A stretch of DNA of 64,000 bases, from assembly GCA_973895155.1 (NCBI GenBank), contig OZ316895.1:16348170-16412169 (forward strand). The letters run 5' to 3'. The notes under the pieces are model-generated. The model ran no database searches, was not told the DNA's origin, and was given only the letters and a program-made list of their open reading frames with translations. The stretch comes from Marsupella aquatica. Taxonomy: Eukaryota; Plantae; Marchantiophyta. This document shows, one piece after another, positions 1,604-64,000 of this stretch. How positions within the stretch are numbered: position 1 is the first letter of the stretch; the number at the start of each line of letters is the position of its first letter. Both the position numbers and the translations under genes were made by a program.

Positions 1604-1605
1604 AT

Positions 1606-2080: not shown

Positions 2081-2089
2081 GTACCAAAC

Positions 2090-8413: not shown

Positions 8414-8554
8414 AAGGAGGTATATGCTTGTTGAACCACCAAAATAAAAAGTGTTACTTGATGGGACCCTGACCTTATATCAATGTACACAACCTTGGGG
8501 GTCAATCAAGTAAAGCTTTTTACTTTGGGGGTCCATTAAGCAAATACCTCCCTT
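8414..8554. mobile_element. MITE-like foldback (~140 bp); related copy at about 25290-25430
   Basis: GAGGTATATGCTT...CAAAATAAAAAGTGTTACTTGAT pairs with ATCAAGTAAAGCTTTTTACTTTG...AAGCAAATACCTC. The same arms (AAAAGTGTTATTTGAT / CAAGTAATACTTTTCAT) recur near 25310-25405. Confidence 0.6.
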
Positions 8555-38194: not shown

Positions 38195-38445
38195 AAATCC
38201 ACAAATCAGCAGCCAACGCAATAGAAAATCAAATCAGCAGCCAACCCAATAGAAAATCAAATCAGCAGCCAACCCAATAGAAAATCGAAACTGTGTATTG
38301 TCTTCCAAATAGAGATCTACCTAGAAATCAGCTTCACACCACCATAGACTACAATACTGAAATCCATTCACGAACCCAGTATTGAAATCCATCCACGAAC
38401 CCAGTATTGAAATCCATCCACGAACCCAGTATTGAAATCCACCGA
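38195..38445. repeat. short tandem repeats (28-bp and 25-bp units)
   Basis: AATAGAAAATCAAATCAGCAGCCAACCC x3; GTATTGAAATCCATCCACGAACCCA x3. Confidence 0.85.
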
Positions 38446-41047
38446 CAACCCAATAGGGACTCAAAATTGTGTTTTAGTCTTCAAAATAAGGATCCAAAAC
38501 CCACACTAGAAATGAGGCTCCACACACGATAGTTTTCCCTTACACTAGAATTAAACTTCACATCATAGTTGATTACATTCTTGAAAACCCAGCCACCAAA
38601 AACCCTAACAGTTTTCCCCAGACTAATCAAATCAGTTTCACACCACCATATATTACAATCTTGAGAAACCAATGACAATCCAATAGAAAGTCAACATTGT
38701 GCATTATTTGCTAAATAAATACAGATCCAAAAAACAAGTGTCTAAAACTCCAATAAAAATGAAGTGTCATTAGTTGGACATGACTTTTTACAGTTTAGTG
38801 GGTTTTGTCACCCAAGCAAGCTCTCCACTAAGGATTGGAGATGATCTTACAAGGCCTAGCAGATCTTACAAGGCCTAGCATATGTGATATGTCAGGTAAA
38901 GCCTGGAAGGTGCTTTCCAGAATAAGTACCCCAGGGCTTTGGAGTAGGATGGTCTTTCGGTTGAGGAACTGTTGAACAAGGAGGGTTCTACCATGTTTTA
39001 AACCTCCACTGTCACCCAAAGCGCAGGGCTTTGGAGTAGGATGGCCTTTCGTTGCAGGAACTCCTGAACATCGAGGTTCTACCCATGTTTAAAATGCTAG
39101 TCCCGGCCAAGCCCACGAAAGAGGGGCCCTCGTTTGGGAGGGAGCTGTGAACTCTTTCAAATAAACTGAGCAAAACAGAGGTTCTGCCCAAACAAGTCTA
39201 GCGTTATTCCTCATCACTAATGTGTTCCTTCTGAATTGTTCAACTAAAGAATTGCACAGAACGCGAATTGAAGTCATGAGGTGATTCTACTTAGGGAAAC
39301 GAGTTAGAGAGGTGCCTTGACTGTATTTCCATGGAGTAGACATGTTCTTGGTCGCTAACAGTTCTCGCTTTACAATGACAGTAACTATTCTATCAAAAAT
39401 CAATGAATTAAGTAGTGCTTCTGCAAAAGATTTAGGCTTTGCACGTCATCTAGGTTCCGATATTTCCTACAGAACACGCCTTCCTCTCGCCTGATCAATA
39501 CGAAGCACGTTCTAAATCCACATTTTAGATGGCCGAGTGGGACCCAAGAGGGATTGTCCATACAAAGCTGGTGATATAGGCAAGCTGTGAGCTCAGTTAG
39601 CAGAAAAGATGGTCGTCATATTCATCAACGTTTTTACGAAATGGTTTGACAACATAAACTACTCCTGGGTTGTAATTTGACCTTGATGGACGGTCCAGCC
39701 GAAAACATGAATTTCCAGCTAGAAACATACATATTTGCTCAGAAGACTGCCTTGTACCATTGACACCGCTCTACACTTATACTAGTTTGTTTGAATGAGT
39801 TGTTGGTCCCGAAGTAATGAACTTTGTCATGACTGTTCTCATGATTTGATTGAAATGATAGAGCATAAACATTGCAATCCATTGAATGCATGTGAAATTC
39901 CCTCTCGTCACATTCTATGGGAGCAGAGTTTATCGGGACTCTATGGCAGCAGAAATTTTGGACAGACAGACAAAGGAAAGTCCATACAAAGGTTTCAAGT
40001 CCGTAGAGACAGAAGGAATGCACATGGAATTCTCTGCCCAAGGAGAAAAACAACAATCTGTGAAAAAAATTGAGAGAGGACATAATTACAGCATGAGCAA
40101 ACATATCTATGTCTCTAAGGGGACGAAGTACAAATGATTGAAGAGATTTCAGCTTTATACCTTTGCTTTAAGAACAGCGTTGCAAGAAACGAAGTCATTC
40201 ACCGCTTTATGACAAACTAGGCGTGACAAAATCTCCAAAATCTCCAGCAATAAAGGACAAGATCCGACGAACTGATATTTTGCATTTTCATTCATTCTCA
40301 GCGTTCTTCCTTCAATTCACTTTCAGGTAGTCCAATTGCTCACAAGTCATTCACAAAAGCATTCTGAAAATAAGGATTTCCATTGCAGCAACATGTTCCC
40401 GAGATATCTCATTAATTGTATAAAACAATGACTTAACATTCAACCAACAGCCTACCAGTTTTCAGCTCAAATTGTTGAACATCAGTCACAACAGTAGGAG
40501 AAAGACCGGAGGAGAAAGACCGGAGGAGAAAGACCGGGAGAACGGCATTTGCTTGACTGGAATCACTTTACTGCCCCGGAAGGACATGATGCGTGCCTCA
40601 ATTGCTGCTCCAAAACAGAATGCACGTAGCATCCATGGCTGAAATCCTAATCCTCTGAGACTTGGAAAACAAGTTCTGACTATGCTCGTATGGATAGGCA
40701 TGGGAGTCTGGGCTTGTGGGTAGGGGAGCCTTTCCTGTGAATATGTGTGGGTATACGGGCCAGATTGTGTTAGGGATCCTCTTAATCTATATTTGGTTTT
40801 GTAACATCTAGAACTCATAATGAGACTGATTGTGATAGTAGCTTTGTTCGGAAATGGAGTGTGAAAAAGTGGGTGAGAATTCGGGTTAACTAGGATTAGT
40901 GAGTTCTGCAAGTACAACCTATGACCAGCTTAACTCCAACAACTCCTGGTGTGTTACAATTAAGATGGTTGGGATCAAACCCAAGGTCACACCTTCCCAT
41001 TGAAGAGCTTGTTGGCCTTTCTATCCTCATGCCCCAGTACCTTTACA

Positions 41048-41401
41048 TGTTAGATATTTACTCAAGGTCTAGGGTTTTGACATGTAATTGTAGTTAGGCT
41101 AACCATAGTCGGAGATGTGATTAGGTCAACTAGAATGCACACTATATGCCAAGCGGCGTTTGCTTGGATAAGTGGAACTTAGGCTCATTATTACGGAGCA
41201 AGTTGAGAGATAGAAAGAGCTTATGTTGTGGAAGCTTGGTATGGTCGGTCGGCCTAAAGTGCATTAAGCTCTTGTGTGTTCTCGTGGACGTAGCCTCATG
41301 TGGAGGTGAACCACTATCTTTCTGTATCGATTGCTTGATCGTTGGATGTGTCATGTGTTTACCGTTGCGATTGTTGTCTATGCTCCCGTCTATGCTCAAC
41401 A
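41048..41401 (+). mobile_element. solo LTR of the copia family
   Basis: TGTTAG...CTCAACA, similar to the other two LTRs; no PBS follows. Flanks TTACA/CTACA are a 5-bp TSD with one transition. Confidence 0.85.
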
Positions 41402-41782
41402 CTACAGACTGCACATCTTGGTCCTCTCTTGGGCCTTCCTTCTATCCTTGTGCGCAATTGATGGCCACTACTCCACTCCTATGAATGGTTGATGCTTTGC
41501 AATGCTCGCCTTTCCCATCACTCCGGCTAGATAATGGTGCTCCAGAACATTCTCTTTCACCCAGAAGTTTGTCATCTGGCTCTAGTACTCAAAGTGACTT
41601 AGCCATAAGCACTGCAGAAAGGCAAACAACAAGTTTCATCATGTATTTGTTGCCCACATATCTGACCAGTGGCCTAGAACTAACTCACCCTGAGTGTATC
41701 ATGCAATTAACAACCATGAGTAAGCCATTAACAGAAAACTCTACTGTTGAACATGCAAGTGTCCTTTCACTATCATGCTAGT

Positions 41783-44700
41783 TGTCACCTGCTTATCAAA
41801 CGATTTACACAACAAATACGTATTTCCTCCTACTAAAATTATTTGTTATCGTATGACGGGAACATGGAGGGACACTATTCGGATTCTATTGCATGTAGGA
41901 TGAGTATGTTTATTTTCGCTCCCGAAAATGTAATTTTTGATCAAGTCTACCGACTAGCCTCTCTGTTTTTGATCAAGTCCTATGGACTACACCACACACA
42001 CTGTGATAGGGCCCCAAACCCGGTAGTAACTTAGTGATGATTTATAATTACGTATATAAGTAGAAAGACAAATAGGTGTAGTAAAAGTGTTTGGATTTTC
42101 AAATTTTTTATTTTTGTTAGTTCCAATAAATTGATGCGACAACCGGAGGCCGGAGTTGAGAGGGGTGTAAGGCGGTGATGGATGACAAGGGAACCATTGA
42201 GGGGGTACAAGGAGGTCACAAAGGTAGCCCAAGGACTTGGAGCCAAGGTGTGGGCATCTTGGAGGGGTGGGGGCTGGTCGGAGGCTCCACGTAAGGCGCA
42301 AAACGGGAAGAATGACCAAAATATAGAAAACATTGAAACTTAAAACAAACGTTTCTGCGCTAGTACTATTCCAAACATGGTCATGTTTGGATTCATTTTG
42401 AAGCCCTCAATGAGCCCCATGTGAAACTGAGGTTCTCTAGTTGATTTTAGGTCTATATCAAATAGTGACATCTCAAGGGACCTCAATGCCCGTAAAACAA
42501 CAAACTAGGCAATCTTGGAGTAGTGATGGTGGGAGGGCCCTTTAGAAGGAAGGGGTTCCCACACTTGTGTTCCCCTTCACCCTTTGTGTGGTCCTCACAT
42601 GGTTTTTTGCTCTCTTTCCCTTCCCCACTCCGTAGAGGGGCACTCCGTAGAAGAACACATCCGTAGAAGGGGCCCTCACACTTTCTTCCTTTCTTTTTTC
42701 TCTATTCTCAATTGTGGGGTTTCCACCCATACCTAAACCCTAAACCCTTTCCCTCTTGTACTTGCTTTCAACGTGTGTACAGACCCGGGTTGTACGAACA
42801 TCAGATTTTTGACCATCTCAAAATCAAGAGTCTACGGGCTCGTTGGAAAGAGCTCGTCAAGCTGAATCCAATGATGTGTCACATGGCCAAAACGGAGCTA
42901 AGACGGGGGAGATACAACATATCATGTTTTTTGAGAATACGGGGGTTTTGAGGTCGTACGGACGTCCGTACGGAAGGAGGTCCCGGATTTGCAAGGGAAG
43001 GAGGAGGTAACAGCACATACGGGGAACCGTGATCCATGTTTTGCAAAGCCGGGGCCCCCTGGTGTTGTACGGACGAAACGGAGAGAGACGGTGCCCCGTG
43101 AAAACTTAAACAACCATATCTTGGCCATTTGACCTCCGTTTTGTGCACCATTTACGGATCCGTGATCAGGAAGAGGAGGGCTCCTCAGATATGTTTTCAG
43201 AAGTGAATTCTGAGAATATTTTAGTTTCGACAATTATAGGGGCCCCCTCCTTTTATGGCGGACCGGTGGTGGCGATCAGGAGGATTGAGGCTGGTCGGCA
43301 GGGTAGATAAATAGGATAGGAGGTGGTGGACTCAAGTGAGTCCTTGTTTAGCGGAGTGGTATTCACTCCAGATGAGAGTGATGAGGAGACCAACTCACGG
43401 GGCTCAAGCGAGGGCACCGTGAGTGAGGAGGAGGACTAGGGTAGCCATACGGACTTGGTCGTACGGCCTCTGGATTTTGAAACTTTTTGGAAAGGTGCAC
43501 TCATGGGCTTGTTGGAAAGAGCTCGCGGAGCTCATTCCAACGGAGCCAGGATGAGTAAGTTAGGGCTCGACGAAGTTGGTAAGTAAGTGATATTGAAACG
43601 GCCATAACTTGGTCGTTCGGTGTCCGTTTCGGGAGCGGTTTTGTGATTCATGATCAGGGGGAGTAGGGTTACCCAGGGGTGAGCTCAGAGGTGCAATCAG
43701 AGTGGCACCTAGTTTCGGCAATTATGGGGTTCCTTGCATTTTTTTACGGTTCACGAAGTGATGATGTTGGGGTGTCGTCGAAGGCACCGTCGGTCCCATT
43801 ATTAGATTAGGGTTTTAGGAACATGTGTGTGCCACATGTTTAGGTTAGGGGTTTCTTTTGTGAAGGGTTTTAGCGGCGCCGCTAGGGTGGCCGCCACCAT
43901 GGTGATCCCGTGAGGGGTGCTTTGGTGTGTTTTTTTTTCAGTATTTAGGGGGAGAGCCCCGGAGCAGTGAAGGGGGGGAACTCAGTCTAGTGTTGGTTTT
44001 AGGGAAGTTAGCTCATAGCCAGAAGAGGGAATCAAGCCAGAGTAGTGAGGTAGAGGTGTAGCACTTGCCCTAGTGAGGCAGGAGTTGGGCAGACGGCAGG
44101 AGGTCGGGTTGTCCTTGCAATGTGTTACGGCGTTTTGCCAAAAGATACGGATTTGGTTTGATTCCTCAAGTTTTGGTGTGACGTTACCTTTTTTGGTTCA
44201 CGATTGTGTTCCTTCCCAAGAAATGTCTAAGGAATCCTTTCACGGTTTGGTCAACCATGTGAGTAGGAGGGGTGGTGATAGCACTCCACCAACGACCAGT
44301 AGGAGTGTGTGTGTGGTGTAGTCCATGGGACTTGATCAAAAGCAGAGGGGCTAGTCGGTAGACTTGATCAAAAATTACATTTCCGAGAGTGGAAATAAAC
44401 ATACTCATCCTACATGCAATAGAATCCGAATAGCGTCCCTCCACGTTCCCGTCATACAATAACAAACGATTTTAGTAGGAGTAAATACGTATTTGTCATG
44501 TAAATCGTTTGATAAGCAGGTGACACACACTCCTGCTGGTCGCTAGTGAAGTGCTATCACCACCCCTCCTACTCACATGGTTGACCAATCCGTGCAAGGA
44601 TTCCTTAGACACTTCTTGGGGAAAGAACACAATCGTGACACAGAAAAGATAACGTCACACCAAAACTTCGATAATCAAAGCAAATCCATATCTTTTGGTG

Positions 44701-46340
44701 AAAAATTGTAACACATTGCAAGGACAACCCGACCTCCTACTGTCTGCCCAACTCTTGCCTCACTGGGACAAGTGCTACGCCTCTACCTCACTACTTTGGC
44801 TTGATTACCTCTTCTGGCTATGAGATAACTTCCCTAAACAAACACTAGACTAAGTTCCCCCCAATTCACTATGGGGCTCCCTCCTAAATACCAAAAAAAC
44901 ACACCAAAGCACCCCTCACGGGGTCACAACGATGGCGGCTACCCTAGCGGCGCAGCTAAAACCTCATTCAAGAATTCCCTAACCTAAATCATGCGGCACA
45001 CACATGCTACCTAGAACCCTAATCTAACTACGGGACCGATGGTGCATGCCTTCGACGGTGCCAAACAACAATCTGGAATCCGTAGTCCTGAGGAAGTGAG
45101 AAGGCCCTCCCATGGTCAAAACCTAAAATATTTCAAACCACTCCCCTGAGTGAAGCCCTGGACAGCCTGCTCCTCCTTATCACGGATCCGTAAACGGCAC
45201 TCAAAATGGATCCCGAACGACCGAGATATGATTGTTTAAATTTTTACGGGACACCGTCCCCCTCCATTTCGTTCGTACAACACCAGGGGGCCCCGGCTTC
45301 TCCCACAACAGGGGTCCCCGGCTTTGCTGCTGTCGTCTCCATTTCTGGGAAAAAACTAGGGTCCCTGGCTGACGGATGTACAGACATCCGTACGGATTCG
45401 ACGTCGAGAGATTTTCATCAAAATGTAATCTAACATATCTTTACCATCTTAGCTCCGTTTTGGCCGTGTGACACATTGTTGGATTCAGCTTGGCTAGTTC
45501 CTTCCAAAAAGCCCGTAAACTCCTGATTTTCAGATGGTTGAAAATTTGATGTTCGTACAACCAGGGTCCGTACACACGTTGAAAGCAAGCACAAGAGGGA
45601 AAGGGTTTAGGGTTTAGGGTTTAGATATGGGTGGGAACCCCACAAGTGAGAATAGAAAAAAGGGAAAGAAGAAAGTGTGAGGGCCCCTTCTATGGATGTG
45701 TCCTTCTACAGAGTGCCCCTTCTACGGAGTGGTTCTTCTACGGAGTGCCCTTCTACGGATGTGTCCTTCTACAGAGTGCCTCTACGGAGTGGGGAAGGGA
45801 AAGAGAGCAAAAACCATGTGAGGACCACACAAAGGATGAAGGGGAACACAAGGGTGGGAACCCCTTCTAAGGGCCCTCCCACCATCACCACTCCAAGATT
45901 GCTTAGTTTTATCATTTTACAGGCATTGAGGTTTCTAAAGATGTCACTATTTGATACAGACCTAAAATCAACTAGGGAACCCTAGTTTTGCATGGGGCTC
46001 ATTGAGGGCTTCAAAATGAATCCAAACATGACCATGTTTGGAATAGTACTAGTGTAGCAACGTCTGTTTTAAGTTTCAACATTTTCTATATTTTGGTCAT
46101 TAATCTCGTTTTGCGCCTTATGTGGAGCCTCCGGCCAGCCCCCACAATGGTTCCCTTGTCATCCATCACCGCCCGATACCCCTCTCAACTCCGGCCTCCG
46201 GTTGTCGCATCCATTTATTAGAACTAACAAAAATTGAAAAATTGAAAGTCCTACACTTTTACTACACCTACTTGTCTTTTTCTTATATACGCAATTATAA
46301 GTCATCACTAAGTTACTACTGAGTTTGGGGCCCTGTCATA
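41783..46340 (-). mobile_element. long solo-LTR-like element A, interrupted by same-family element B
   Basis: TGTCACC...GTCATA ends with a perfect 5-bp TSD CTAGT (41778-41782, 46341-46345). Its halves (41783-42001, 44526-46340) are the reverse complement of B. Orientation is assigned only relative to B. Confidence 0.85.
42002..44525 (+). mobile_element. long (~2.5 kb) solo-LTR-like element B nested inside A in opposite orientation
   Basis: TGTGATA...GGTGACA ends; 5-bp TSD CACAC (41997-42001, 44526-44530); no coding ORF. Confidence 0.85.
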
Positions 46341-48894: not shown

Positions 48895-49239
48895 TGTTAG
48901 ATATTGCTCTAGTCTTGTGACTCATGAGCTAACCACAATTAGACTAACTCGGGTTAGGACTTAGCTAATGTTAGCGGTAGTGTTGTTGTGAATATAGCCA
49001 GGGCTGATACCAGACCTTGGTGGAACTTAAGGTTCATTGTTACGGAGCTAGTTGAGAGATAGGGAGAGCTTGTGCTGTGGATGCTTGGTATGGCCGGTCG
49101 GCCTAGAGTGCAGTAATGCTCTTGTGTGTTCCCGTGGACGTAGCCTCATGTGGAGGTGAACCACGTATCTCTCTGTGTTGACTCTTGTGCGTTGGATGGT
49201 TCATGGGCTTGCAGTTGTGAATGTCGTCCTTGCTCAACA
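48895..49239 (+). repeat. 5' LTR of copia element
   Basis: TGTTAG...CTCAACA followed by AG and the PBS. Confidence 0.88.
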
Positions 49240-49253: not shown

Positions 49254-50845
49254 ATGCCTGGGAGGTGACGAGGTTTTTTTGTGACGGGTTTTCCAGCATT
49301 CAGTGTCGGTGTTACATTCGGAGTTTTGTCGCATGAAACTCAAATGTGTGTGGCTGAGCGGATAGGTTAGTGAGAGGGCATTCTAATGGTGGTTAGAACT
49401 CGCTGATCGGTATCCGTGGTGCGGAGGAATCGGAGTTTGTGTCGTTCAGGTCTTATTCATGTTCGACGGGTTTTTGGGGGAGAGACCAGAGTTCACATTT
49501 TTCAATGGTGTGAGCTGTGCGGTGCGGGAGGTGTCGCATGTTGTAGCTCAAGTTGGAGGTTCTGGCGATCTGGTCATTTTGGTGGCTGATATGCTGCCAA
49601 GTTGTTACCGAGTGCGTCGTGACGAGAGAAAGAGACGTTCAGGTTTTTTGACAGGCTATGGAGCTTGTTCCCATCTGAACCGGGTCTCTCTTCGTGACGT
49701 CCGACTCGGTGGAAGAAACGCGAAGTGCTACGGCTCAACGGTTTGATCGCGGCGAAGTGATCGTTTTGAGTATGGAGATTGGCACTTGACGCGGAGAGAG
49801 TGTGACGTGACAAAAGTTTTTTCTTTGTTGGAGCTGCAGACTGTGTCGGTGCAATTTGGCAACATTTCCCGTCAGCGGTCGTCACTTTTCTCGTGTGAAA
49901 CGACATCGGTTTTTGTGAGTAACGCGGTATTTTTTTGTTTTAAAGACAAATTTTGATTTAAGAGGGGGTTAAGGGGCCCTTTTCTTGTGTGTATACACAA
50001 GGGTGTATACACAGACCCTTGCCCCAGCCCCGCATACCTGTTGCTCCCCCTCCCTCTCGAGTATCGGATCGCAGCCGTGACCGGAGGCGCGACGCGCAGT
50101 GCCGGCGGGCGCCTTTTGCATCGTCGCACAACCACCCCAACCCCCGTCGCTCCCCGTTACTTGCTGCCCCACGCCACCCCACCCCTTGCTTTTGCCGGCC
50201 ACACCTCACGCCGACGACCTCCCCGGCCCGGCCGTACGCGTATGCGGTAGCCCTCGCCCCGGCCATATGCCCTCCTTGTACCCTGCCTGGCCCGCCTCGC
50301 ATATGCGCAATGTGGATGCGCGTTTTGGGCGTATTTTTGTTTAAAGGGGCTTAGACCCCCCTTTTAAGGGCCAACATTTGTTTTTTTCCTGGCTCTCCTT
50401 TCATTGGTCATCCCAAGCCTGGTGACCCTCCGTTTTAACCGCTCCGACAGGGGGAATGGCCCCCTGTGAGACCTGCTGTACTGTGCGAGAATATTCCCAA
50501 AAAATAGAGGTTAGTCAAAGATTTTGAGGTCCGAACGGTAATTGTTTCCGGTTGTTTTCGGGAAGGTAGTAGCTATTCGAGTTAGCTACGCGGTGCAGCA
50601 CTCCATTCGTAATTCCAACATTGATTGCCCATTCACATTTTGGAGATTCTTGGAGGTGGTCAAACCAGGGGAGTTTTCCATGGTTTTACCCACCCCGACC
50701 GAAATCTGAATAACTTTTTTGTCAAAGTTTGTTTTTGATTTTTGTTTTCAGTTTTGGACTCCTAGCTACGTGAGCTATGCGGCGGTGTTGAGTTCTGAGT
50801 TTTATGAGAAGTTTTGAAAAAGATATTTTTTCATGATTTTCTCAT

Positions 50846-53450
50846 ATGAGTGACTCGAAGGATACTGGAAGAATCGACCTCGGTGGAGCTTCAGGTTTGC
50901 GACGGTTAGACGGAGAGTCTGAGGTGGAGCTGGTACCGTTTGAGGAGGAACAAGTAATACCGGTACGATCACCGGTGTGGCATGCAGTGGAGGAAGTTGT
51001 TCTACTACCAGAGCTGTCGGTAGTTGGGAAGAAGAGGAGATCGATGGCAAGATTTGGAGGAGTAAAGTTTGAGGTGGAGAAGTACGATGGTCGTACTGAA
51101 TACTTGCTCTGGGAGAAGCAAGTGAAGGGTGTTCTTCGGACCATGGACTTAGCTCATCTGCTCTCTTTGCGATAGCAGTATGATGGAGAGGAGGAGATTT
51201 TTGTGAAGCAGTGGAGATAGGAGCACGTGATTACTGTCAATGCGGTGATGCTATACCTTAAGCCGCATATCATCAAGAAGCTGGATGATTATGACGATTG
51301 CACATCACTCTTCAAGGCCCTAAGAGAGAAGTACTATCGAGAAGATGTGTCAGACCGACTGTACAAGAAGTCTCTCTTGATGAGCCTTAGGCTCAAGGAA
51401 GGGAGCAAGCTACAAGATCACCTGGATGAGTTTGAGAGTCTAGCGATGGATCTGTCAAACCTGTGTAAGGGAGTTGAAGATGAGTATAAGGCCTTGCTTT
51501 TGCTAAGCTCCTTACCGCCATCTTATCAAGGCTTAAAATAGGTGCTCTTGTACAGAGATCTTAAGTCCATTTTGTATAATGAGGTGGTGAGTTCTTTACT
51601 GTGTGATGATGCTCAAAAGAAGTTGGGTCAAGCACAGAAAGCATCTTCTTCTGGCACTGCGCTGAACGTGAACCGTGGAAGACCAGCGCAGCGCACGAAT
51701 GGGCAGAACAAATTTAGATCTACATCATGGGGGAGATTTAAATCCAGAGGGAAATCGCAAGAGAGGAAGCCTCTTACATGTTGGAGATGTGGCAAGCCTG
51801 GCCACATGAAAAGGGATTGTCGGGTAAAGGACCCTACCGCATCAGCTAACGCGGCATCAAGTGCACATGAGATAGATTTACTCAATGATGATGACATTTT
51901 ATGATGCCAAGGTTTTGCTCTCAATGTAGTGTCAAATCCAGGTAGTGATGACTGGATACTAGATAGTGCATGTACTTTTCACATTTTCTCAAGGAGAGAT
52001 TTTTTCAGTTCTTACACAGTTTCCAACGGTTCAGTGTTGATGGGAAATGGAATCCCATGTCAAGTAGTTGGACTTGGATCTGTTAGATTTCAGATGTTTG
52101 ATGGAGTTGTGAGAACGTTGAGGAATGTGAGACATATTCCTAGCATGATGAAAAATCTCATTTCATTTGGAGTTTTAGAAGCAAATGGCCATCGGTTGAG
52201 TTCTGGTAATGGTGTCTTTCAGGTTTCAATTGGTACTAAAGTTGTATTGAAGGGAAAGAGACATAAAAATCTATACGTTTTGGAGGGCAATGTAGTCTGT
52301 GATGAAGCCAATGTAACCTTATCTCATGAGGAGACCGCCCGGCTGTGGCACTTCCGACTGGGTCACATGAGTGAAAAAGGTTTGGCTGTTCTTCAAAAAA
52401 AGGGATTACTTTCTAATTTGCAATCTTGTAAGTTAAAATTTTGTGAGCATTGTGTGCTTGGAAAGCAACACAGGAAACCCTTCAGAGTTGGAACTCGCAC
52501 CAGCAAGGAGGTACTTGAGTATGTACATAGTGATGTGTGGGGACCAGCCCCTACTCCCTCACACTTTGAACTGTTATACTATGTCACGTTCATTGACAAT
52601 TACTCAAGGTATGTGTGGATATACTTTCTACACAATAAGTCTGATGTTTTTGCCACTTTTAAGGAGTGGAAAGCCCAAGTACAAAATCAGACTGGTAATA
52701 AGGTGAGATATCTTTGATCGGATAACGGCGGTGAATACAGTTCTGGTGAATTTGGAACGTATTGTAAGGAGCAGGGGATTACCTACCATCTCACAACAAG
52801 TTATACTCCACAGCAAAATGGTGTTTCTGAGAGGCTCAACCGAACACTATTGGACCGCTCGAGGAGTATGTTGAGTCAATCATGCTTACCACATGAGTTT
52901 TGGGCTGAAGCTGTCAACACTGCAGCTTATTTGGTAAATTTCTCTCCATCAAGTTCTATTGGATTCAAGATGCCATTTGAAATGAGGTACGGGCGTCCAA
53001 CAGATTATTCACATCTGAGGATTTTTGGATGTGATGCTTATGTACTTACACCTTCCCAGCTTCGATCCAAGCTGGAGTCCAAGTCGAAGAAGTGCATTTT
53101 CCTTGGCTATCAGAAAGGTGTAAGGGGTTATAGGTTATGGGATCCAGTACCCTATAAGCTAGTTGTCAGTAGAGGTGTGTCCTTTAATGAATCCAAATCA
53201 TCAAAGGAGGGGAAGAGTTCTTAGGACTCCCATACTGACAAGGGGAAATCCATCCATCCCAGACCGGGTTGAGGGGGAGATTAGTCATGACGTTGTTCAT
53301 GATAGGAGAGATGGAGAAGCTCCGGGCTTGGAGTTGGTTCCTGTGATGGAACAAGAGGAGCAGATTGTTGCTGGGGTACCTAAAGTTCAGCCAGCAGTAG
53401 GAGTAGATCAGCTTGAGTCATCTACAGTTAGAAGAACTTCCAGTTGTCTC
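50846..53450 (+). pseudogene. copia gag-pol (gag, CCHC knuckle, protease, GAG-pre-integrase, integrase) with premature stops
   Basis: CWRCGKPGHMKRDC; WILDSACTFH; LWHFRLGHMS...CEHC; VHSDVWGP, FIDNYSRY, *SDNGGEY, PQQNGVSER; CIFLGY. Several in-frame TAG/TGA. Confidence 0.95.
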
Positions 53451-54055
53451 GGGGGCCTTAGTATACAGAGGCCCCCATACCACGCTCGACGTTTTGGTCC
53501 CTTGTGACCCTAACTTATTAAGTAAAATATTTTTTTCTCCCTCCCTACCATGCTTAGAAGAATTCCAAATCCTTAAATTTTGACCCCTAAAAAAGGTTGA
53601 GTAAATTTTTGTCTTCATTTAAACATACCTTACTAAGAAAAGAAAAGTTCTTTCAAATGCACACCTTTTTTGAGTGTTTGTCAAGATTATTCGAGTCTTA
53701 TTGAAGCCCTCCTATGCTCCTTTGCATTGGCATCCATGATGTCTCATCATAAAAAACTTATAGTATATAGTGTTGATGCTTCCACTAAGAATCTCAATTC
53801 TAGTAGAAGCTTCAGCAATATACAATATGAGTTGTTCATATTTGCAATCTCCTATGTTTACAGTCTCATGTGAAAGGTAGGTGCACCAAAAGGAAATTGA
53901 GTTAACAATCTGAATGAGTGTATGTGGCAGAGGGGAATTGAACCCTTGATTGAGCAAGAAGCTCAAGTATCCAAATCTGCCACCCCCTAACCTATTCCCC
54001 TAACCTATCCCCTGTACCTACTTAAACCACTACCATGACTATGGATACATGCACA

Positions 54056-57000
54056 TCATTCAACTCTAGACATGGTCTCTAGATAAGTATCCAAAGCTTG
54101 TTTGTCAACTCGATCTAACACATACACTAAGCCAATCCCTTGTTTCATGGTCAGAGTAACATTAGTCATCACCATTTCTATATCAATCCATTGTAAATCA
54201 GTAGTATCATAAGTGAATTCAACCTTGCTTGAGCTTGTTGGCTTATACCAATTAAATAAAAATTGACAAATACTCCCTATGTGTCCATGAGGAGGTGTAG
54301 GCCTGTCAAGCAAATCAATAGCAGATCTCACTCTAGTCCATTGTCCCTTAACTTTCTGTCTCATCATCATAATCCGACCAAGCCAAAATTCTTTCTTGGC
54401 TTGAACTTCTAGTTCCTGAGTCCTAGCTTTACCTCTTCCCTTACCTTTCCCCTTCTTTGATCTTGTAGAAGGGCCTGCAGCATTAGCACTGTCAAATGCT
54501 ACTCCACAATCACTCCCAACATCAACAAAACAGGTCACAGTATTTGGATCACATTGTTTCCTCTTACCAAGATTATATGCCACTTGTTTCGCCCTTGTGA
54601 GCCTATCCTTGGACAAATGAGGGTTGCCCACTAGTTGACTCACCAAAGTAGATTTGTAAATTGTTCTGCCCTCATAGGTAACTGTAGGCAACACCTTCCT
54701 CTTTTCCTGTAGAGGGCTCTGAATAGACTCTGTAAGATCAGCCACAACAGAAGACAACACATGACGAACCTCATGCCCCAAAGTATCTATCTCTATAGAA
54801 TGAGGTTTTGGTACATCTAACTCAACCCCATCCTGCAAAACATCGTTAGGAATGGTTAGCTCATCTGTCAACCATGCATCAATTCGATTTAGATCTTCCT
54901 TGAGCAGGGTCTTCAAATTCATGAAACTCTCCTTCTGGACGAGGTCGAATTGGAGATCTATGCTCTACATGGTCTTCAGAATCGTCAACAACAACTGCCT
55001 CTGCTATGACAGCTGAATCTGGCCATGTTTCAACTTCCACATGCCAGGGGTGAGTCCACCATCGCTTTCTTGATGCTGGCAGATCACTTCGGGGAGACAT
55101 TTGCAACCTTCTAAGGAACTCTTTTGCTTCTTCGAATCCTTCTTTCAAGGCTGTAACCACCAACTCATTAGTTTGCACTTTAGAGTAATCAAAAAGATTA
55201 GGTGCATCTTCACCTTCAAGTAAAGGATGAAGCTTGGCCCACACATGATCTTGCTTCTTATGTGATCGAGCTACTTTCAAGCCCTCTGGTCCACATTCTA
55301 ATCCAGCAAGACGATTCAACCCAACAGCACTATCTAACAAAGAGCCAAAGTCATAATTCCTCTCATGGCCACTCATTCCACCTACCTTGCTTAAAAAGAT
55401 CTCACAACAATCAGAACCCAACTCATGAAATAAAATGCACAAGTGAGAAAATTTATCACGAAATGCACATACAAGCAACACAATGAACTGGCAAGACATA
55501 TTAACATCATGAAAAGCTTGGATTGAAATCATATTTTTCTTTGTATGTGAAGCAACATTTCCACCTACAGCATGATCACCATACCTTAACCACAACCTCC
55601 ACAGTCGAAAGAACCAAGAAACTTTGCCTGCCAGTTTTACTCTAGTCCTTAGATCATGTCTCTGGGAGTAGAAACTATCAATATAATCTGCACAGATCTG
55701 CAGATACAACTCTGTCCCCAAGCTTCGTTCATACAACATATCAATTCTTGCATGTAGATCTGTTAAACATTCACGCACCTTGTTTGATGCTATCCTCTGA
55801 GGACCAGCCCAATTCTGACGGTCAGATCTATTTACATCATCCCAATTCAATCCATGTTGATGAATTGGGTAATGATTGTACACATTACAAACATGAAACA
55901 GAGAAGCATGTTGGTCTCCAAGTGCCATTATTGAGGACACTCGATCTAGTGGGTTAATCAATTTTTTCCCACTGTGAGGTTGGTCTTGATCACCAAAACC
56001 ATAGAGGTCCCCATTAGGCAATATGGCAACTGAGTAAGACCATCCTTCCCACCCTACAGAAAATCTAGGGTAAATGCCATTTTCTCCTCTGTAGTCTTCT
56101 AACATCAATTTTCTGCGTCTTGCATCACCATCACTAGCATGCCCAAGCAAAGGACCTACAGAGTCTCTGCAATGCACATCCCAAGATTCCTTCAATTGCA
56201 CCCAATGCTCTCGAACCTATTCTGCCTTGAATTTGTTACATGTTGAAATAGCACAGAGGGCCAACTTTGGCATTCCAACATGCAATGGATTCACAATGAC
56301 AACTCTAGCATACATGCCCTTGTTAAAATCCTCAAATGTATTTACAATCTTGTTATAGCCATCCTCACCGTCACCTACAAGAATTTCTAATCCAAATTCA
56401 TAGGTGTGCCCATCCTTATGGCCACAGAAACCAATCAGAGTGTCATATTTGGCCTCCCACCTGCACAGAGCCCAATGAGAACCAAGTCAGATTCAAAGAA
56501 TTGGTTCAAAACTACATGCATCACAAATAGTCTTCACCTCCAATCACATCATTATGTGCTATTGCAATTGACATACCGTGGGCTTTCCTTGATCCTGGTT
56601 TCATCCTCTGCAAACATGACAGGCACATCCCCTACAATCCCCAACATCTCCTTTGTAGCAGACAGAATTCGAGCCACCTCCTTGAATGTTTCTGGCCTAA
56701 TCCCAACACAAAATTGCACAAATTTTGCTCTATCTCGTTTTAGTGTCTTCAGGCTTGGCCCAGATAAGTTTCTTGCAAAAACATGTGCCACCTGCCGGCC
56801 TCCATATTGAAACATAGCCTGAGCAATGGCTTTTTTTTTTACTGTAGCAAAACCCCCTTGCACTTCTCTCCAAATTTCTACCTACATCCTTCAAGAAATC
56901 CCAAAGACCTTCTTTTCCACCAAATGCACCATTCCTATGACCATTGACAATACTCCTTAAAAAAAGTCTCAAATCTTTTCTATCTGCAGCTACTCCTAAC

Positions 57001-58632
57001 AGTTCTTGCAATTTTCTCTTCCTAGTACTCAGGGCACACACTTTCTGAGTCTGTAGTGCCAACAACCATCTCTCCTTTCTTCTCTTGATATTCAAGCCAT
57101 GCATCTGTGTACTCAACTTTGGACGTGTCAAATAACGTGCATTCAAACCACCCTCTGTGCTTCTTTCCCCTCTCTTTGCTAAAGCCTCCGCTTCCCTGTG
57201 CACCCATCCACGAAAGTCATCTTCTAGTGTTATAGCATGACATCTACTACAAGTTAGGTTCAGAAAACCCCCACCATACAAGGACAACCTACAACAATCT
57301 TTATGCCTAAATAATCCTTCTATATGTACAGTAGAATTTGTGTTAGGATTGTAGACATGAACAGAGATTGTAGCATCCATATTCCACACATGTCCTCCCT
57401 GCTGATCATGCAAGATACCCTTCACAGCATACTTCACATTCTTCCACTCTACATATTCATCCCATATTCCCCAACAGAGCAAACTTAAGCCCACATCAAT
57501 ATCTCTAGACCCACCTGTGCCAGAGCTGTTGCTTGCATTGGAAGCATCCTCCTTTGAAGAATTTTAAGATTGAATTCTGTGAAGGATGTTGATCCCTCTC
57601 ATCTGGCTTCCTTGGTCTTCCCCTCTTTCCAGATCTCAATGCAAGTTCAGCAGTATTCTCTCTGGCTTCAACTACATCCAGGTGACCTCGACTGACCAAG
57701 TGTGTCCTCAAGTTGTGATCCAAAGTCCCTTTCTTACAAACCAAATCCATGATTGCCCCACAGACTTTGCAACGAACCTTATAAAGGAACCACTTGTTTG
57801 CATTATTGGCTGGACCAGGCACACGGGGCACATGAAATAACTCATCATCACCTCCACACTCAACATTCAGATTCTGGACTATCTCTAGGCCAGTTGCTAT
57901 GGCACCCTCATAATCAAACTCAAGCTTCTGTGCAAGATCAGAGGGCTTCAACCCAGTCATAGCAATACCCCTTCTCCTACAGTAATTGTCTTTGTGTTTA
58001 GCAAAGGCAAGGTGCTTGGTCTTAAAATTGCTGAACAAATTAGCAATTGACTTCTTATCTTGGGAATTATCTACTCTCCCATAGACCACTCTACACTCAA
58101 GACACTCCAGATGGCCTCTCACATCCTGTCCTTCATCCCATGTTCGAACTCTCCAATTATGATTTTTATAACCATTCTTCTGAATCCACTTCTCCAGTCT
58201 TGTAAATTCATCATTCCAGACTTTGACAGCCACCTTAGACATCAGAATAGACTCAAAAGAAGCTCTCACAGGGGGAGCTTCTTGAAGCTGTTCACCCTGG
58301 GAAGAGTCCACTGCAACCGATTGGGTGACAGGAGCGGAAACTGATGGGAACCCTGTCCTAGCAAAAGGTAGGGATCCAATTTGTTCAATGACAACAACTT
58401 TCCCATCCAATTCAGACAACTCAGTCATTTTCTCACTATTGACCTTCATGCGACCAGGAAGCCTATAATCCCAGAAATCAAAATCAAAATCAACCAATTC
58501 AGGAATTTGACTTCGAAAATCAGCTAAGGTTTGTCCTTCTTTGAAGGCCAACACAGCTATAGGTTCTTCATCTTTCCCGTCAGTCACCCCATCCCTTTTT
58601 TTGTGCAATAGCTTCACAAACTGGGTAGCCAT
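54056..58632 (-). pseudogene. P-element/THAP9-like DDE transposase with N-terminal C2H2-type zinc fingers and AT-hook; one intron, several frameshifts, one premature stop
   Basis: ORFs 57505-58692, 56730-57494, 56552-56863, 54879-56201 and 54056-54922 join through frameshifts and a GT-AG intron at 56461-56576. Motif order: AEDETRIK, W...DTLIGFCG, ARVVIVNPL, ASDGD, DQPHSGKK, DRQNWAGPQRIAS, GSDCCEIFLS. This parallels P transposase FDEM..., SD.G, DxxHxxK, the GTP-binding insertion and QDxxE.FF. Confidence 0.72.
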
Positions 58633-58887
58633 TTCAATCAACTGGTTCAAGTAAGTTAAAGCATCAAGGGTTCTAAATACAATCACAGACACATATTGAA
58701 CCTGCCATACATAATGAACCTGCCATCCAGCACAGTAAACAACACAATATGAATCAAATTAGAGACTGCTCAAAAAACCTTTTCATAACCACATTTAAAG
58801 ACCAACACAAACAATTCTTGTTGGTTATTGTTCACATGTGATTAGCCCAGTGAAGAAGTTTGCTTTGTACTATCAATTTCACAAACT

Positions 58888-59547
58888 CTAAGACGTATGA
58901 GGCTGAACAGGGACCAAGTTGCCCTCAAATATTGCATGCCTATGACAATAAATGAAACGCCACCCTTCCACATCCCAGTGGTCCCTGCCCTTCACACACC
59001 TCCTGAGGTGTTTCACTCCCCCAGAGGTCTCATCATGACACCAACTTTGAGGGCACCTGCGACACTATACAAAGTCCTTAATCCCATCCTTGTAGACTTT
59101 ACAGTACTCACACCTTGGGCATATTAGGGTTTTTGGATTGGTTGGATGAGACCTCTGAGGCAGTGCCCCAACCATAAGTAGCACCCTAAGGCAGCCAGGG
59201 TGATAATGAGAAAAGCAATCCGAGTGGGCACAATGGAGCACAAGAGATTCCTGTGTAGTGGGATGTTCGAATCTTCCAATGAGTCCACAAGCAAAGCATC
59301 TAGCTTTGTCGGCAGCACACAATTGACAAACCCAGGGTGTCCTCCAGTCATTGTTCTCAGGCAATGTGACAGGAGTGAAAATGGGCCCCTGCATACCTTT
59401 TCCACCAACAAAGTGAAAATGTCTACTACAAGGCCCATCACAGAATACCACATCATCTGTCTCATCACAAAAGAAACAACAAGGGGGATCCATGCAGTGG
59501 TGCTCCTTATGGGAAAATATATCAATCCTTGGCACATCAGAAGCCAT
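58888..59547 (-). pseudogene. EDM2/NSD-type composite PHD zinc-finger gene carried by the transposon
   Basis: CFFCD...FCDGPCSRHFH...CQLC; CFACG...HCAHSDCFSHYHPGCL...ICP. After an in-frame TAG (59065-59067) it reads CRRCPQSW; after a frameshift WEGWRFIYCHRHAIFEGNLVPVQPH. Same succession as the EDM2 PHD module as recalled (CRRCPKSYH ... AWDG...RVLIYC..H.I...L.TP..DH). Confidence 0.8.
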
Positions 59548-59680
59548 CTCGGCTTGCCAGATAGTGAGTTTACCTCTGCACAACAGATCATTCACTTAGA
59601 ATCCATTTTCAGCCCCTCAACATTCAACATTAACTTGGTAGTTATTGGTCAAACAACACATACTTAACATTTAAGCATAC

Positions 59681-60155
59681 CTTTAATGCCTTATCAAGCA
59701 AGAGATGTAGCAAATGTTGTTTGAGGTCTGCTCCTTCCATAGGTTTTTGGATCTGAACTGTGGTATATTGCTGAAGCTTCTGAGATGCCTTCACTATGCC
59801 CTAAACCTATCAGGAAACCAACCCATCCTGCAAGAACAGTTGAGAGCATGTACTAATTTATCAAAAACCTGACTGATTTCAAAGAGACAACCTGCATGCG
59901 GCCAAGTTCATTCTTGGTAGAAATTGAGTCCCTGGTAGAGCACAAACCTGCTTAGATAGGAGACTAAATAGAGAAGGAGGAAAGGCAATTGAACCCCTAC
60001 CATGAAACATCCAATAAGACCAAAAAGAAAAGAAGAATCTGAATGAAATTCAAGCTGAGCTCACTAGATTTTAGCATACCTTGGCAAATACTGGTTCGAG
60101 TTTATAGACTTTAGACAGCTCCTCGACAATCTGCCGTGTAATCTTCTTTGACAAA
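59681..60155 (-). other. putative coding exons of an additional spliced gene, or of the PHD gene's 5' part, inside the transposon
   Basis: Segments 60080-60155 (LSKKITRQIVEELSKVYKLEPVFAK) and 59681-59800 (GIVKASQKLQQ...LLLDKALK) are open and bounded by AG acceptors and GTATGC donors. Confidence 0.45.
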
Positions 60156-61419
60156 CTGCACAACACAATGGCAGATGAATGTCAATCAAAGCTTTCTTTT
60201 TTTGACTGATTTTATCTTGAAACATACAAACACAATGTCAGAATCATAGGATCACAAAAGCAAATCAATTCACCATTCATAAAACAAACTAATAAGCAGA
60301 GCAGTCATTACAAAGCTTCCAAGAGTACTCAGTATTCAACATTGTTTGAGACTTAGTAGACAGCCTCAAGTGACTTCGACAGCAGATTGAACTCCAGCAA
60401 CAAGTTCTCCAACCTCGAGTGAACTTCAGCTCAGATTGAACTCCACCCTCAAGTGACTTTGACAGCAACAAGTTTCTAATCTGAGCGAGAATCTAAGACA
60501 TCTGAGGCAGGATTTGAGGCTTAACCAATGTACATATTTATAAGTTGAATTGACGTAACTGATAATAATTTGATTGGGCCTGTCTACTGTAATTATTTGG
60601 CATTATGTTGATACATTGGAGCTACTTGAAACTGAAGAGACAACGCCAAGATGGGTGCATGCTGCCAACCTAGGATGCTTCTGCCAACTAAGGACTTCTT
60701 TGGATGGAGCTAGTGAGCATCGAGAGGAAGCCCCGGAGGAAGCAATGAAGACAGACCTGGCTGCCCAACTGCTAGCTACATAGAAGCTGACTCTGAAGAT
60801 TGAAGACTATTGACTGAAGACAATTATAAAGAACTGAATCTTGATTTACTGTAGTGATGCTACACTGGATCCTCGGTATCGTTCACTTAGTTACTACTAC
60901 ATTGATAGACTCAAGGTGCTACGCCTACTCTATCGGGAGTGGGCTCAAGATTGATGAGCTTTCCTGTTGGACAGCTGCCACTTTAAACCTTTAAAGTGGG
61001 GCGAAAAGGCAGCAACTAAATTAAAGCTGAAAGATAGATCGACAGAAAACAGATTTGATAGACCTTGATGAGTGCAAGTGGAGCTAGATAGCGAAGGAAA
61101 AAGTAACAACACAGTTATCTCGCAACTCAAAAGCACCAAGATTGAGATAGAGAACTTCACCAAAAGTAGCTGTAGCAGATGAAGCACACCCAACCAAGCT
61201 TGATCAGCTCACAATGAGCACTTGTGCCCAGCCTTGGTTCACCTTGAACTCTCTATTGCAGCCCACAATGCAGCTCGCAACTCAGCACACCCAATCATAG
61301 TATGACGATAGCAGCAACGCTCGGTTCGAACTTGCCCAATCAATAGCCTCGCCAAATCATTGATAGCAGCAACTCCTTCCAAACTCGCCCCCAATCACAA
61401 CCTTCCCCAATCAGAGAAG

Positions 61420-61730
61420 CAATCAACGCCTCAATCAGAGCAGCAATATTAGCGCCTCAATCGTAGCGCCTCAATCATAGCAGCAATCGCAGCACAGCAC
61501 CTCAAGCCACAATCACCATAGCAATCGTAGCGCAACACCTCAAGCCTCAATCGCAGCAGCGCAGCTAGCACCTCAAGCCTCAATCGCAACTAGCACCTCA
61601 ATCACAGCAGCACAGCACCTCAAGCCTCAATCGATCAGCACCTCAAGCCTCAATCGATCAGCAACGCCTCAATCGATCAGCATTGCAGCAGTGCAACGCC
61701 TCAATCAATCAGCATTGCAGCAATGCAGCC
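61420..61730. repeat. low-complexity tandem repeats (CAGCACCTCAAGCCTCAATCG-like)
   Basis: Directly visible near the upstream end of the transposon's genes. Confidence 0.8.
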
Positions 61731-62438
61731 CCTACATCGCAGCCCCCGGCCCGCTTCAAAGCTTTTTCTTTGTAAAAATGTCGATGCAACACCCAGCCCC
61801 CGATCCCCAAATTTTCCTTCACAAGCGCATTCGAATCATGTTCCCTAACCAGCCATCGCAAACTACAGCCGATGGATGGCCCAACAAATGGATGGATGGA
61901 TGGCTGCCCAATTTTACCCTAAACTTGGTGTTGGACGGCTACGGCAACTAGTAACAAGAAACGGTCCCTTCCATGGACCCGAGCGACCAAATATATGGCC
62001 CCATGATTTCACCCAAACGGCTCTAACTAGGATCGACGGACCTAAGTGGCCATCGAGTGGCTACCCTAACCCTTGCTCTCCCCCCCTCCCTGTCCACCTC
62101 CTGCTCACACAAACAATTTGAAATTTTCCCTCAAAACTCTATGAAACCCACATGTTGCCCCTAAACCATGTTTATGCAAGGGAGTGCCACGTGGACCAAT
62201 TAAAGGTTGACGCGTGTCACTAGTATATTTTCTTTCTCAACATACCCTATCTTAAACGTACAACTTATATTGAAGAATTGAGTTTTTACCCATCCCTACC
62301 AAACTTCTAAGTTGCACTATTTATTTTTATACCCCTAAAGTTCTTCAACAAAACTTCTTAAGTCTTCCGCGACATCGAATTAAAAAACCCTATACTTAGT
62401 CGCGCGTGATGGGTTGGAAGGAAATAAGTGAGGACCCC

Positions 62439-62625
62439 GAGTCAGTCGTTCTACTAGAGCTCCTACCAGGTATGATCAATGGGCAGACTCATCTAAGCTA
62501 GATGATATTGACATTGCACCTGATGATGATGATATGGCTTTGATCTTGGAAGAGGGAGAGTCTTCTTCGTACAGTGAGGCTTGTGCTTCAGAGCAGAAGC
62601 ATGAGTGGAATGCAGCAATGCAGAG
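62439..62625 (+). pseudogene. copia pol IN-RT linker fragment
   Basis: SRSTRAPTRY...ALILEEGESSSYSEACASEQKHEWNAAMQR. Confidence 0.85.
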
Positions 62626-63857
62626 AGTTTGGTGTTTGAGGTCCCGGCCGGGGACCTCAAACACCAAACTACAGGGCCCAAACTCTATCGCTCTAATTCC
62701 GGCTTACAAACTATTAAAAAAAGTCTACATGAACTACCTATATTTGACAAAATTGCTACTCACGTTTCAAACGGAAGGAGCTTATATACCAGCTATAGAA
62801 TCTGTCCGACACAAACTTACAAACTCCAGGACTGCGGACTCCGATACGCGCCTGGATGGCATGATAAAATTTGAAAAAACCATTGCCAGACTCGAGATGC
62901 GTAGCGGAGTCCAGTTAAATTTTTCAAATACATACATATGTATATATATATATAAATGGAAAAAATATATCTACCGGTTTTACGAAAAAAAGAGGTGGAA
63001 GGCCTTCGCCCTCCAGGGCATCGTTCAATAAATTTGAACCTGGTGCAATAAATCCTTCGTAGTTTTGAAAACTGAACCAAACGGCTGTTCCAATTCTGTA
63101 TAGTACTCGGAGAAGGCTTTGTATTTTGAATGGATATCAAGCCTTTTCCTACTATATTCTGCCGACGTGAGGCGCATATTTGCTACATCTTATCTTGGCT
63201 GGGAGTAATCCCGGCATTTAGTTATGAATCCATCTCAGGTAAGCTTACATGCATATAATTTGTATCGAAAACGAAAACACCCAAATTTATCTACCTTATA
63301 GCAAAATAAATCTTATTGGACCCTTGTCTGTAAATCCACTTTTACGAAGTTGGCCGTGATGGCGACCTCGACTCCTACCGCCCTTAGGCTCGTTTCTAGC
63401 TCCTTTTGAACCAGGTTCAAGAATCTGTTGTCTCAAATTTTTTGCCGCATGAGGCCTATAAGCACTTGCTTATCTATTTTATTGAAGCATTGCGTTTCAC
63501 CTTCTACGAACCAAACAGTACCCACAAAGTCACAACGTATCTGCTTCAAGCAGGTATGTTGGGAGCGGCCCGGTCAAAATCCATGAGATCCTTAGGTGTA
63601 AAATGTGATGCTGTACCTGGTCGTTTGAATCAAACTTCCATTTTTATTAAACGAGAGGGTGTTAAATACTATGGCCAGTGCAGTTGGAAAGCATAATCCG
63701 TTTTTAACCAAAGCGGTTTGCTAGGGGCAAAACCACAACAAACACGGCTGATGATAAAATACCAGCTAGAGACACGTGGATTATCTCAGGCAACAGCCCG
63801 AGACCCTTTAAGAGGTTCGTAGAAACTATTTCATGGAAGTTCAAAGCGGCTAGTTTA
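62626..63857. mobile_element. 1232-bp non-coding, non-TIR insertion with a perfect terminal hairpin
   Basis: Flanked by AGAG (62622-62625, 63858-63861); removing the insert and one copy restores ATG CAG AGG GAG TTG (MQREL). 20-bp stem with 5-nt loop at 62626-62670. Confidence 0.8.
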
Positions 63858-64000
63858 AGAGGGAGTTGCAATCTCTGAGTGACAACAAGACATGGAAGCT
63901 GGTGGAGCTTCCAAGGGGTCAGCAAGTGGTGGACAGCAAGTGAATTTACAAGTTGAACGACAGTCCTTCAGAGGGTGGAGACAAGATCTACAAGGCAAGG
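63858..64000 (+). pseudogene. copia reverse transcriptase (RVT_2) start
   Basis: RELQSLSDNKTWKLVELPRGQQVVDSK*IYKL...IYKAR. Confidence 0.88.

Follow-up and report, generated by a model that had tools for sequence, protein, structure and literature searches.

A dead THAP-less P-superfamily transposon in the liverwort Marsupella aquatica, carrying an NSD/EDM2-type PHD module

Results

A P-superfamily element nested in a copia retrotransposon

The window analysed here, 64,000 nucleotides of contig OZ316895.1 from the liverwort Marsupella aquatica (assembly GCA_973895155.1, positions 16,348,170 to 16,412,169 of the forward strand), contains one DNA transposon of the P superfamily, which has both of its own ends, is dead and lies nested in a decayed copia retrotransposon. 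The minus strand of the element carries a transposase gene whose ATG lies 256 bp past the stop codon (58888-58890) of an exon for a composite PHD module, on the same strand. A preliminary description of the window had recognized this arrangement and the surrounding copia, and had proposed that the transposon family captured an EDM2-type reader of histone marks.

The element spans 53448-62441 (8,994 bp). The 9-kb insertion with precise ends described previously is real; its bounds are each 3 bp wider than the 53451 and 62438 first assigned. The termini, CTCGGGGGCCT and, reversed, CTCGGGGTCCT, are identical at 10 of 11 positions (CTCGGGG) and form an imperfect 11-bp terminal inverted repeat (TIR). 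The flanking octamers CCAGTTGT (53440-53447) and TCAGTCGT (62442-62449) are equal at six of eight positions, both mismatches being C/T. Taken by themselves, TIR and duplication do not exclude chance, as 16 position pairs between 44 and 64 kb satisfy both. A subterminal motif at +34 is found at both ends (CACGCGCGAC and CACGCTCGAC, 9/10 equal) and also at +35/36 in seven of ten ends of relatives. When TIR, duplication and motif are combined, 11 pairs are found in the window, ten belonging to a nested inverted duplication (41.8-46.3 kb) that has nothing to do with the element and one corresponding to the element itself; five base shuffles of the window yielded none. The terminus fits a family signature, C(T/C)CGGGG, that was seen in related loci L001-L004, L007-L009 and L015, and no other pair in the window combines this signature with a duplication of 5/8 or more. 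Among these loci, which come from metagenomes, L003 is a complete element of 6,096 bp with CTCGGGGG termini, perfect and longer TIRs and an 8/8 duplication. Finally, the copia reading frame is in the same phase left and right of the insertion, and Pfam matches at 51221-53221 run from gag through zinc knuckle, protease barrel and pre-integrase to integrase. The bounds are therefore settled by the +34 motif with its shuffle result, by the terminal signature shared with relatives, one of them complete, and by the preserved copia phase. An origin of the two ends from different elements is ruled out by the family termini, the 8-bp duplication and the pair search with all three criteria, in which termini, motif and duplication pair up. 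Helitron or hAT identity is excluded by the family termini with their 8-bp duplication and by the structural comparisons described below.

A P-type transposase without a THAP domain

The transposase gene extends from the ATG at 58632 to 54056 (about 1,480 codons). An apparent break at 56461-56576 is a 116-bp GT-AG intron, at a position and phase common to relative L013; the damage proper amounts to three frameshifts (near 57540, 56830 and 54900) and one nonsense codon (56217-56219), and the earlier judgement that this copy is dead is borne out. DDE and D(2)H-type motifs were located and are kept in relatives (Table 1). THAP was matched neither in the window nor in any of 71 long relatives, its place being occupied by two C2H2-like fingers, and Pfam searches with pieces of the window's transposase gave no match. 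The first 90 residues (58360-58632) are kept in relatives and look ubiquitin-like by eye; they have no Pfam or PDB match.

One search retrieved 23 long relatives of the transposase and another 849 cluster representatives at E<=0.001; those that bear a name come from Riccia and Calypogeia and are all labelled “hypothetical” or “unnamed”. Loci of the family lie in Riccia sorocarpa (R1sor_021468, _021219, _023470, _001587), R. fluitans (R1flu_011303, _027627) and Calypogeia fissa. In a phylogeny built from 89 cores, the nearest neighbour of the window sequence is a single Logan protein (support 1.0), followed by three Riccia sorocarpa proteins (0.98) and a Calypogeia clade (0.96), a placement that by itself makes a liverwort or some other bryophyte the likely host. 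Sequence searches of the PDB with the single core or with a 20-sequence profile found no match; with a profile of 87 relatives, the Drosophila P transposase (6P5A) ranked first (E 4e-4), the first catalytic D and the E aligning with it. The Pfam cut-off for P was passed by only one of 48 long relatives (P0163, PF12017), with weak P-type matches in two. The fold was examined in relative P0004, which is 49% identical to the window core and whose model has a predicted local distance difference test (pLDDT) score of 84.5. Compared with 6P5A, this model gives a Foldseek E of 1e-8 and a Z of 24.3 (root-mean-square deviation, rmsd, 3.3; 378 residues aligned, within 6P5A residues 168-569; structural identity 13%), against 7.4-8.3 for the next-best structures, Transib, RAG1 and Hermes, and it contains a helix-turn-helix (HTH) region and an RNase H domain split by a P-type helical insertion domain. 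The transposase thus belongs to the P superfamily and lacks THAP. Of the previous label “P/THAP9-like” the P-type core survives and the THAP part does not, while the assignment to cut-and-paste P-superfamily elements is upheld by the TIRs, the 8-bp duplication and the P fold of the relative.

The family appears to be an undescribed land-plant branch of the P superfamily, found in bryophytes. Relatives with open frames of 1,475-1,530 aa exist, and L003 is an intact young copy. Four copies of one relative (L006-L009) are 99% identical, differ in their 3' flanks and end in ...GTCCCCGGG, L006 ending at a variant position; such near-identity between different flanks is a sign of recent activity. 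Some distant family members have additional C-terminal parts, namely a PTM/DIR17-like Tudor domain (P0023, E 2e-8; P0065, E 1e-9), a C1 domain (P0125) or a cysteine-rich extension (P0170). Viral contigs yielded no transposase relative (0 of 21), and one 21-residue PHD match there (L026) was judged to be due to chance. An exact look-up of six open reading frames (ORFs) of the window in the protein collection showed none of them to be present.

A C-terminal barrel kept across the family

The last 150 residues of the transposase, overlooked in the first reading of the window, are predicted to form a beta-barrel. Folded alone from the window sequence and compared in VIA, this barrel is closest to DIM2 (Z 7.3; rmsd 2.8, 87 residues aligned), DNMT1 BAH1 (7.1), EBS and ORC1b (both 7.0); chromo barrels tie with BAH at 7.0, and no VIA match reaches 8. 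BAH domains, or proteins that contain one, make up 15 of the best 18 VIA rows. Foldseek gave no match at E<=0.001 (the top row, Orc1 BAH, has an E of 0.49), and Pfam BAH matched in none of five cases. With a threshold of E<=0.01, a barrel profile picks out 36 long relatives from 50; among the 40 that were not used in training, it picks out 26. In six of the 36 the first-listed stretch spans the first strand only. With moderate confidence, we regard the predicted structure as a BAH/chromo-barrel-like fold kept across the family, which makes it a second, family-wide candidate reader. SH3-like barrels also terminate retroviral integrases and bind DNA, so that a role in reading histones is a lead only.

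The PHD module upstream of the transposase

The PHD reading frame (58891-59574) specifies 228 residues over 684 bp free of frameshifts. It matches PF22908 at 31.6-35.4 bits (cut-off 23.9; E 2e-7), and the flanking fingers fall below the cut-off (PF23011 before it, E 0.02; PF23004 after it, E 0.6). In the Atlas, the stop-free part of the module lies nearest to NSD-type PHD clusters of Chordata and Streptophyta (0.87-0.88; leads only). Pfam and Atlas point to both NSD and EDM2, and to judge from its sequence the module is of the NSD/EDM2 multi-PHD type. Ligands and spacing were checked by eye against the NSD/EDM2 spacing. The EDM2 cysteine spacing claimed at the outset holds in part: most ligands are present, but two are missing, and the linker between fingers 2 and 3 has one surplus residue. 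The last finger and its tail resemble those of EDM2. The C-x2-H with which this finger ends agrees with the C4HC2H pattern of EDM2 and NSD1 (PMC3776765). The other domains listed for EDM2, the ELP methyltransferase-like, PGR and proline-rich domains (PMC7529245), are absent after the PHD fingers, where the stop codon is followed directly by the gap to the transposase. Because these domains are absent, two ligands are missing and no EDM2 sequence is among the matches, “EDM2-type” denotes a resemblance and makes no claim of orthology.

Canonical splice sites surround the PHD exon and, on inspection, mark at least three candidate exons upstream (Table 1). Pfam searches in 100-residue pieces recovered the PHD and nothing in these exons; searches with 1,200-residue read-through frames missed even the known PHD, so that those negatives, including that for the extra region of L001, carry no weight. 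The idea that these exons encode a replication-foci (RFTS)-like domain, prompted by EDM2 and DNMT1, gained no support from the searches.

The ratio of observed to expected CpG is 0.18 in the PHD exon (7 against 38.9) and 0.16-0.27 in four stretches of the transposase; in five other ORFs of the window it is 0.42-1.18. Since the transposase retains 15 CGA codons and no TGA in 1,479 codons, the CpG loss is older than the death of the copy. In spite of this loss, the 228 codons of the PHD exon include a single stop and are free of frameshifts, and their product remains above the Pfam cut-off. We infer that the exon has probably resided for long in the element and been under selection. Word-seeded, and hence weak, searches of 5.8 billion proteins revealed no close host relative of the PHD among 66 and 14 candidates, a result that fits divergence rather than recent capture.

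Table 1. Coordinates of the element, its genes and its surroundings in the window
Feature	Position	Strand	Basis or remark
Decayed copia retrotransposon hosting the element; insertion between integrase and reverse transcriptase regions	50837..64000	+	
Target site duplication, left copy CCAGTTGT	53440..53447	.	6/8 vs right copy
Element 3' end: 11-bp imperfect TIR, short hairpin, motif CACGCTCGAC at +34	53448..53490	-	Family signature
Transposase C-terminal beta-barrel domain, predicted BAH/chromo-barrel-like fold	54056..54540	-	AlphaFold pLDDT 84
Transposase core, second exon: second catalytic D (56112-56141), D(2)H-type motif (55962-55991), helical insertion domain, catalytic E (55389-55418)	54909..56460	-	Fold of relative P0004 vs 6P5A
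Transposase intron, 116 bp, GT-AG	56461..56576	-	Same position and phase in L013
Transposase N-terminal part: ATG, ~90-aa N-terminal domain, two C2H2-like zinc fingers, HTH region, first catalytic D (56594-56614)	56577..58632	-	
Exon for NSD/EDM2-type composite PHD module, 228 codons, one in-frame TAG (59065-59067), no frameshift	58888..59575	-	
Candidate upstream exon, donor 59680 or 59663, stops in every frame	59664..59827	-	Splice-site inspection
Candidate upstream exon, canonical acceptor and donor, open 25 codons, no family match	60080..60155	-	
Candidate upstream exon, donor 60311, two stops, overlaps internal duplication, no family match	60312..60470	-	
Tandem degenerate repeats, GCCTCAATC-rich; CpG-richer 5' region, likely promoter side	61357..61724	.	
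Element 5' end: TIR, motif CACGCGCGAC at +34	62399..62441	-	End comparison
Target site duplication, right copy TCAGTCGT	62442..62449	.	6/8 vs left copy

Other features of the window

The same copia contains a second insertion, of about 1.2 kb (62626-63860), which starts with a perfect 20-bp hairpin (62626-62670) and holds a fragment of mitochondrial cox2 (PF00116, E 1e-11, near 63575-63690). The nested long inverted duplications at 41780-46340 have arms of 40-240 bp that are 83-97% complementary, with telomere-like CCCTAAA units; they are bracketed by a direct repeat (41181-41314 and 49030-49164) and are perhaps a foldback element within an LTR-like pair. Host genes near the element include a multi-exon protein kinase and a reduced-folate-carrier-like gene (10771-17450, 34481-34984), and a degenerate tandem-repeat patch lies at 38065-38717.

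Discussion

In the features by which P elements were compared (TIRs, 8-bp duplication, subterminal motif, HTH and split RNase H, intron-bearing gene; PMC3698922, PMC7776569), the Marsupella element resembles Drosophila melanogaster P (6P5A/6PE2). Both have TIRs, an 8-bp duplication, a subterminal motif near either end and an intron-bearing gene, and in both an HTH region precedes an RNase H domain that is split by a helical insertion domain and has DDE residues with a D(2)H-type motif. Target site duplications of 7-8 bp and GTP as cofactor are further marks of the superfamily. The canonical animal P/THAP9 family is recognized by an N-terminal THAP (C2CH) domain; the window transposase has instead two C2H2-like fingers and another N-terminal domain, which is in line with the description of THAP as restricted to animals (PMC7776569). 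It is about 1,480 residues long, compared with 751 in Drosophila P, and ends in a beta-barrel rather than in an acidic tail, while the element differs from P in its C(T/C)CGGGG termini, its extra PHD gene and its land-plant host. As to the module, it shares with Arabidopsis EDM2 and animal NSD1-3 a tandem of atypical PHDs in the order PF23011-like, PF22908, PF23004-like, the last finger with C-x2-H; unlike these proteins, it comes without ELP methyltransferase, PGR, proline-rich or SET parts, and two expected ligands are absent.

The pairing of a PHD with a P transposase was seen once, in one copy. The transposon precedents for chromatin factors invoked in the preliminary description do exist, and the capture of readers is in fact more widely documented than it allowed. 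DNA transposons with separate chromatin-related accessory genes include Plavaka (CACTA) with PAG1-3 of red algae, HarbingerS with a SET gene and VANDAL with VANC (10.1101/2025.02.11.637652); these genes encode writers, erasers or DNA-binding anti-silencers and occur in many copies, whereas the present case involves a reader, a P element and one copy. Capture of a histone-mark reader by a mobile element is exemplified by 823 predicted fusions to transposon proteins, mostly of PHD and chromo domains (Grau-Bove et al., 10.1101/2021.11.30.470311), and by chromoviruses such as Physcomitrium RLG1, a moss gypsy element with a chromodomain in its integrase (PMC7466625). The former are fusions, mostly in retroelements and hAT, and the accessible text of that report mentions neither P elements nor EDM2-type modules nor BAH-like tails. 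Capture of chromatin readers by transposons is thus widely precedented, and a PHD accompanying a P element is a variant not met in our literature search. That search turned up neither a description of P elements from land plants nor one of a P element combined with PHD or BAH; it did not extend to Repbase reports, subscription journals or the supplements of bioRxiv papers (such as Supplementary Table 6 in Grau-Bove et al.), where such families may already be described.

Our preferred reading, which is tentative, is that the window holds a dead copy of a THAP-less P-superfamily transposon whose lineage probably retained, as a helper gene in its own right, an NSD/EDM2-type PHD module that it had captured. 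The module is predicted to read H3 tails and in this way to tether the transposition machinery to chromatin. Movement would be of the P cut-and-paste type, with the zinc fingers perhaps binding the subterminal motif by analogy with the internal binding sites of P (PMC3698922). One could envision a single promoter in the CpG-richer 5' region driving a transcript from which alternative splicing, across a gap of just 256 bp, would yield either the PHD protein or the transposase; the former would bind H3 tails and bring the transposition complex to chromatin. Roughly half of Marchantia transposons bear H3K27me3, unlike the pattern of flowering plants (10.1101/827881), and H3K9me2 should therefore not be assumed to be the mark that is read.

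Several observations weigh against a helper gene maintained in this way. Neither tblastn nor phmmer --max found the PHD in any of 25 related loci (137,790 bases; 29-52% transposase identity), but only two of these have a defined 5' end, those closest to the window or with the same intron (L005, L013 and L019) are 1.2-1.9 kb long, without long flanks, and none from the nearest clade extends upstream. L003, with its 6,096 bp, and the 5' end of L001 leave no space for a PHD; gene models of Riccia and Calypogeia start at the position of the window's transposase ATG and lack it. The insertion into copia represents a single event. In the module itself, finger 1 has Gly where its sixth ligand would be expected, and the linker between fingers 2 and 3 has Tyr, losses that may reflect decay of this copy. 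The candidate upstream exons contain five stops in about 120 codons of the favoured frame, against one in 1,479 in the transposase, so decay may have reached the PHD gene earlier than the transposase, unless these exons do not code for protein. Lastly, the splice model comes from inspection only; in it, one phase-2 donor farther upstream (59663) would keep the reading frame whether joined to the PHD acceptor (59575) or to an acceptor at 58672. On the side of an accessory gene we counted L001 (element 308-9065), a P-type relative with perfect 15-bp TIRs and flanks that are not a duplication, which has an unrelated extra ORF of 173 codons (7003-7524; no PDB match) inside the TIRs, downstream of the transposase. 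All things considered, it seems fairly likely that the module has been maintained in some form.

If it has not, the PHD would be passive cargo, a fragment of a host EDM2-like gene (several exons with introns) that was picked up in the manner of Pack-type elements and has been decaying without function. This account is only somewhat less likely than the preferred one. No relative carries the module, which is a fragment devoid of the ELP, PGR and proline-rich domains of EDM2 (PMC7529245); the stops of the upstream exons and the two missing zinc ligands are what a decaying passenger would show, and the extra ORF of L001 is a different, unrelated one. Such a passenger is harder to reconcile with a 684-bp frame that has stayed unbroken through deep CpG loss, or with the failure to find a close host homolog.

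A maintained accessory gene might also serve expression rather than targeting, its product binding the element's own silenced chromatin and either promoting full-length transposase RNA, as EDM2 would, or competing with the host reader. EDM2 binds H3K9me2 and promotes full-length transcripts at genes linked to transposable elements (PMC7529245), VANDAL offers a precedent, and the heavy CpG depletion of the element indicates that it has long been methylated. We nonetheless consider this role improbable: of the EDM2 system the element has the reader part alone, it encodes no partner that would bind RNA or, in a sequence-specific manner, DNA, and the H3K27me3 found on half of Marchantia transposons departs from the flowering-plant pattern (10.1101/827881). 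Least probable is a single PHD-transposase fusion produced by in-frame splicing and tethered in cis like RAG2 or a chromovirus integrase, for which the AT-rich, intron-like gap with acceptors at 58719, 58701, 58672 and 58641 and weak phase-2 donors at 58894 and 58882, in frame with 58672, could be adduced, but the donors are weak and one lies past the stop codon, the Calypogeia and Riccia models begin at the transposase ATG, and none of the long relative proteins (0 of 23 + 48) has a PHD match.

It is tempting to extend the preferred reading, that of a helper gene which tethers transposition to chromatin, to the family as a whole. There might be a THAP-less bryophyte branch of P elements whose transposases have a BAH-like reader tail, and in it one liverwort-associated sub-lineage that gained a PHD gene of the EDM2/NSD type sharing the transcript of the transposase, the BAH-plus-PHD pair steering cut-and-paste insertion into marked chromatin. 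In this full form the scheme is speculative and rather unlikely.

P elements are the classic transposon tool of animal genetics, and a widespread land-plant branch with a different DNA-binding and tail architecture would widen the superfamily. With intact young relatives at hand, this branch could yield a plant-native P system. Should the PHD prove to be cargo, the element would still represent an unannotated P family. If, on the other hand, the PHD gene or the barrel reads chromatin marks, the choice of target sites by a cut-and-paste transposase through a host-type reader would become directly testable, in plants that bear both H3K27me3 and H3K9 methylation on their transposons.

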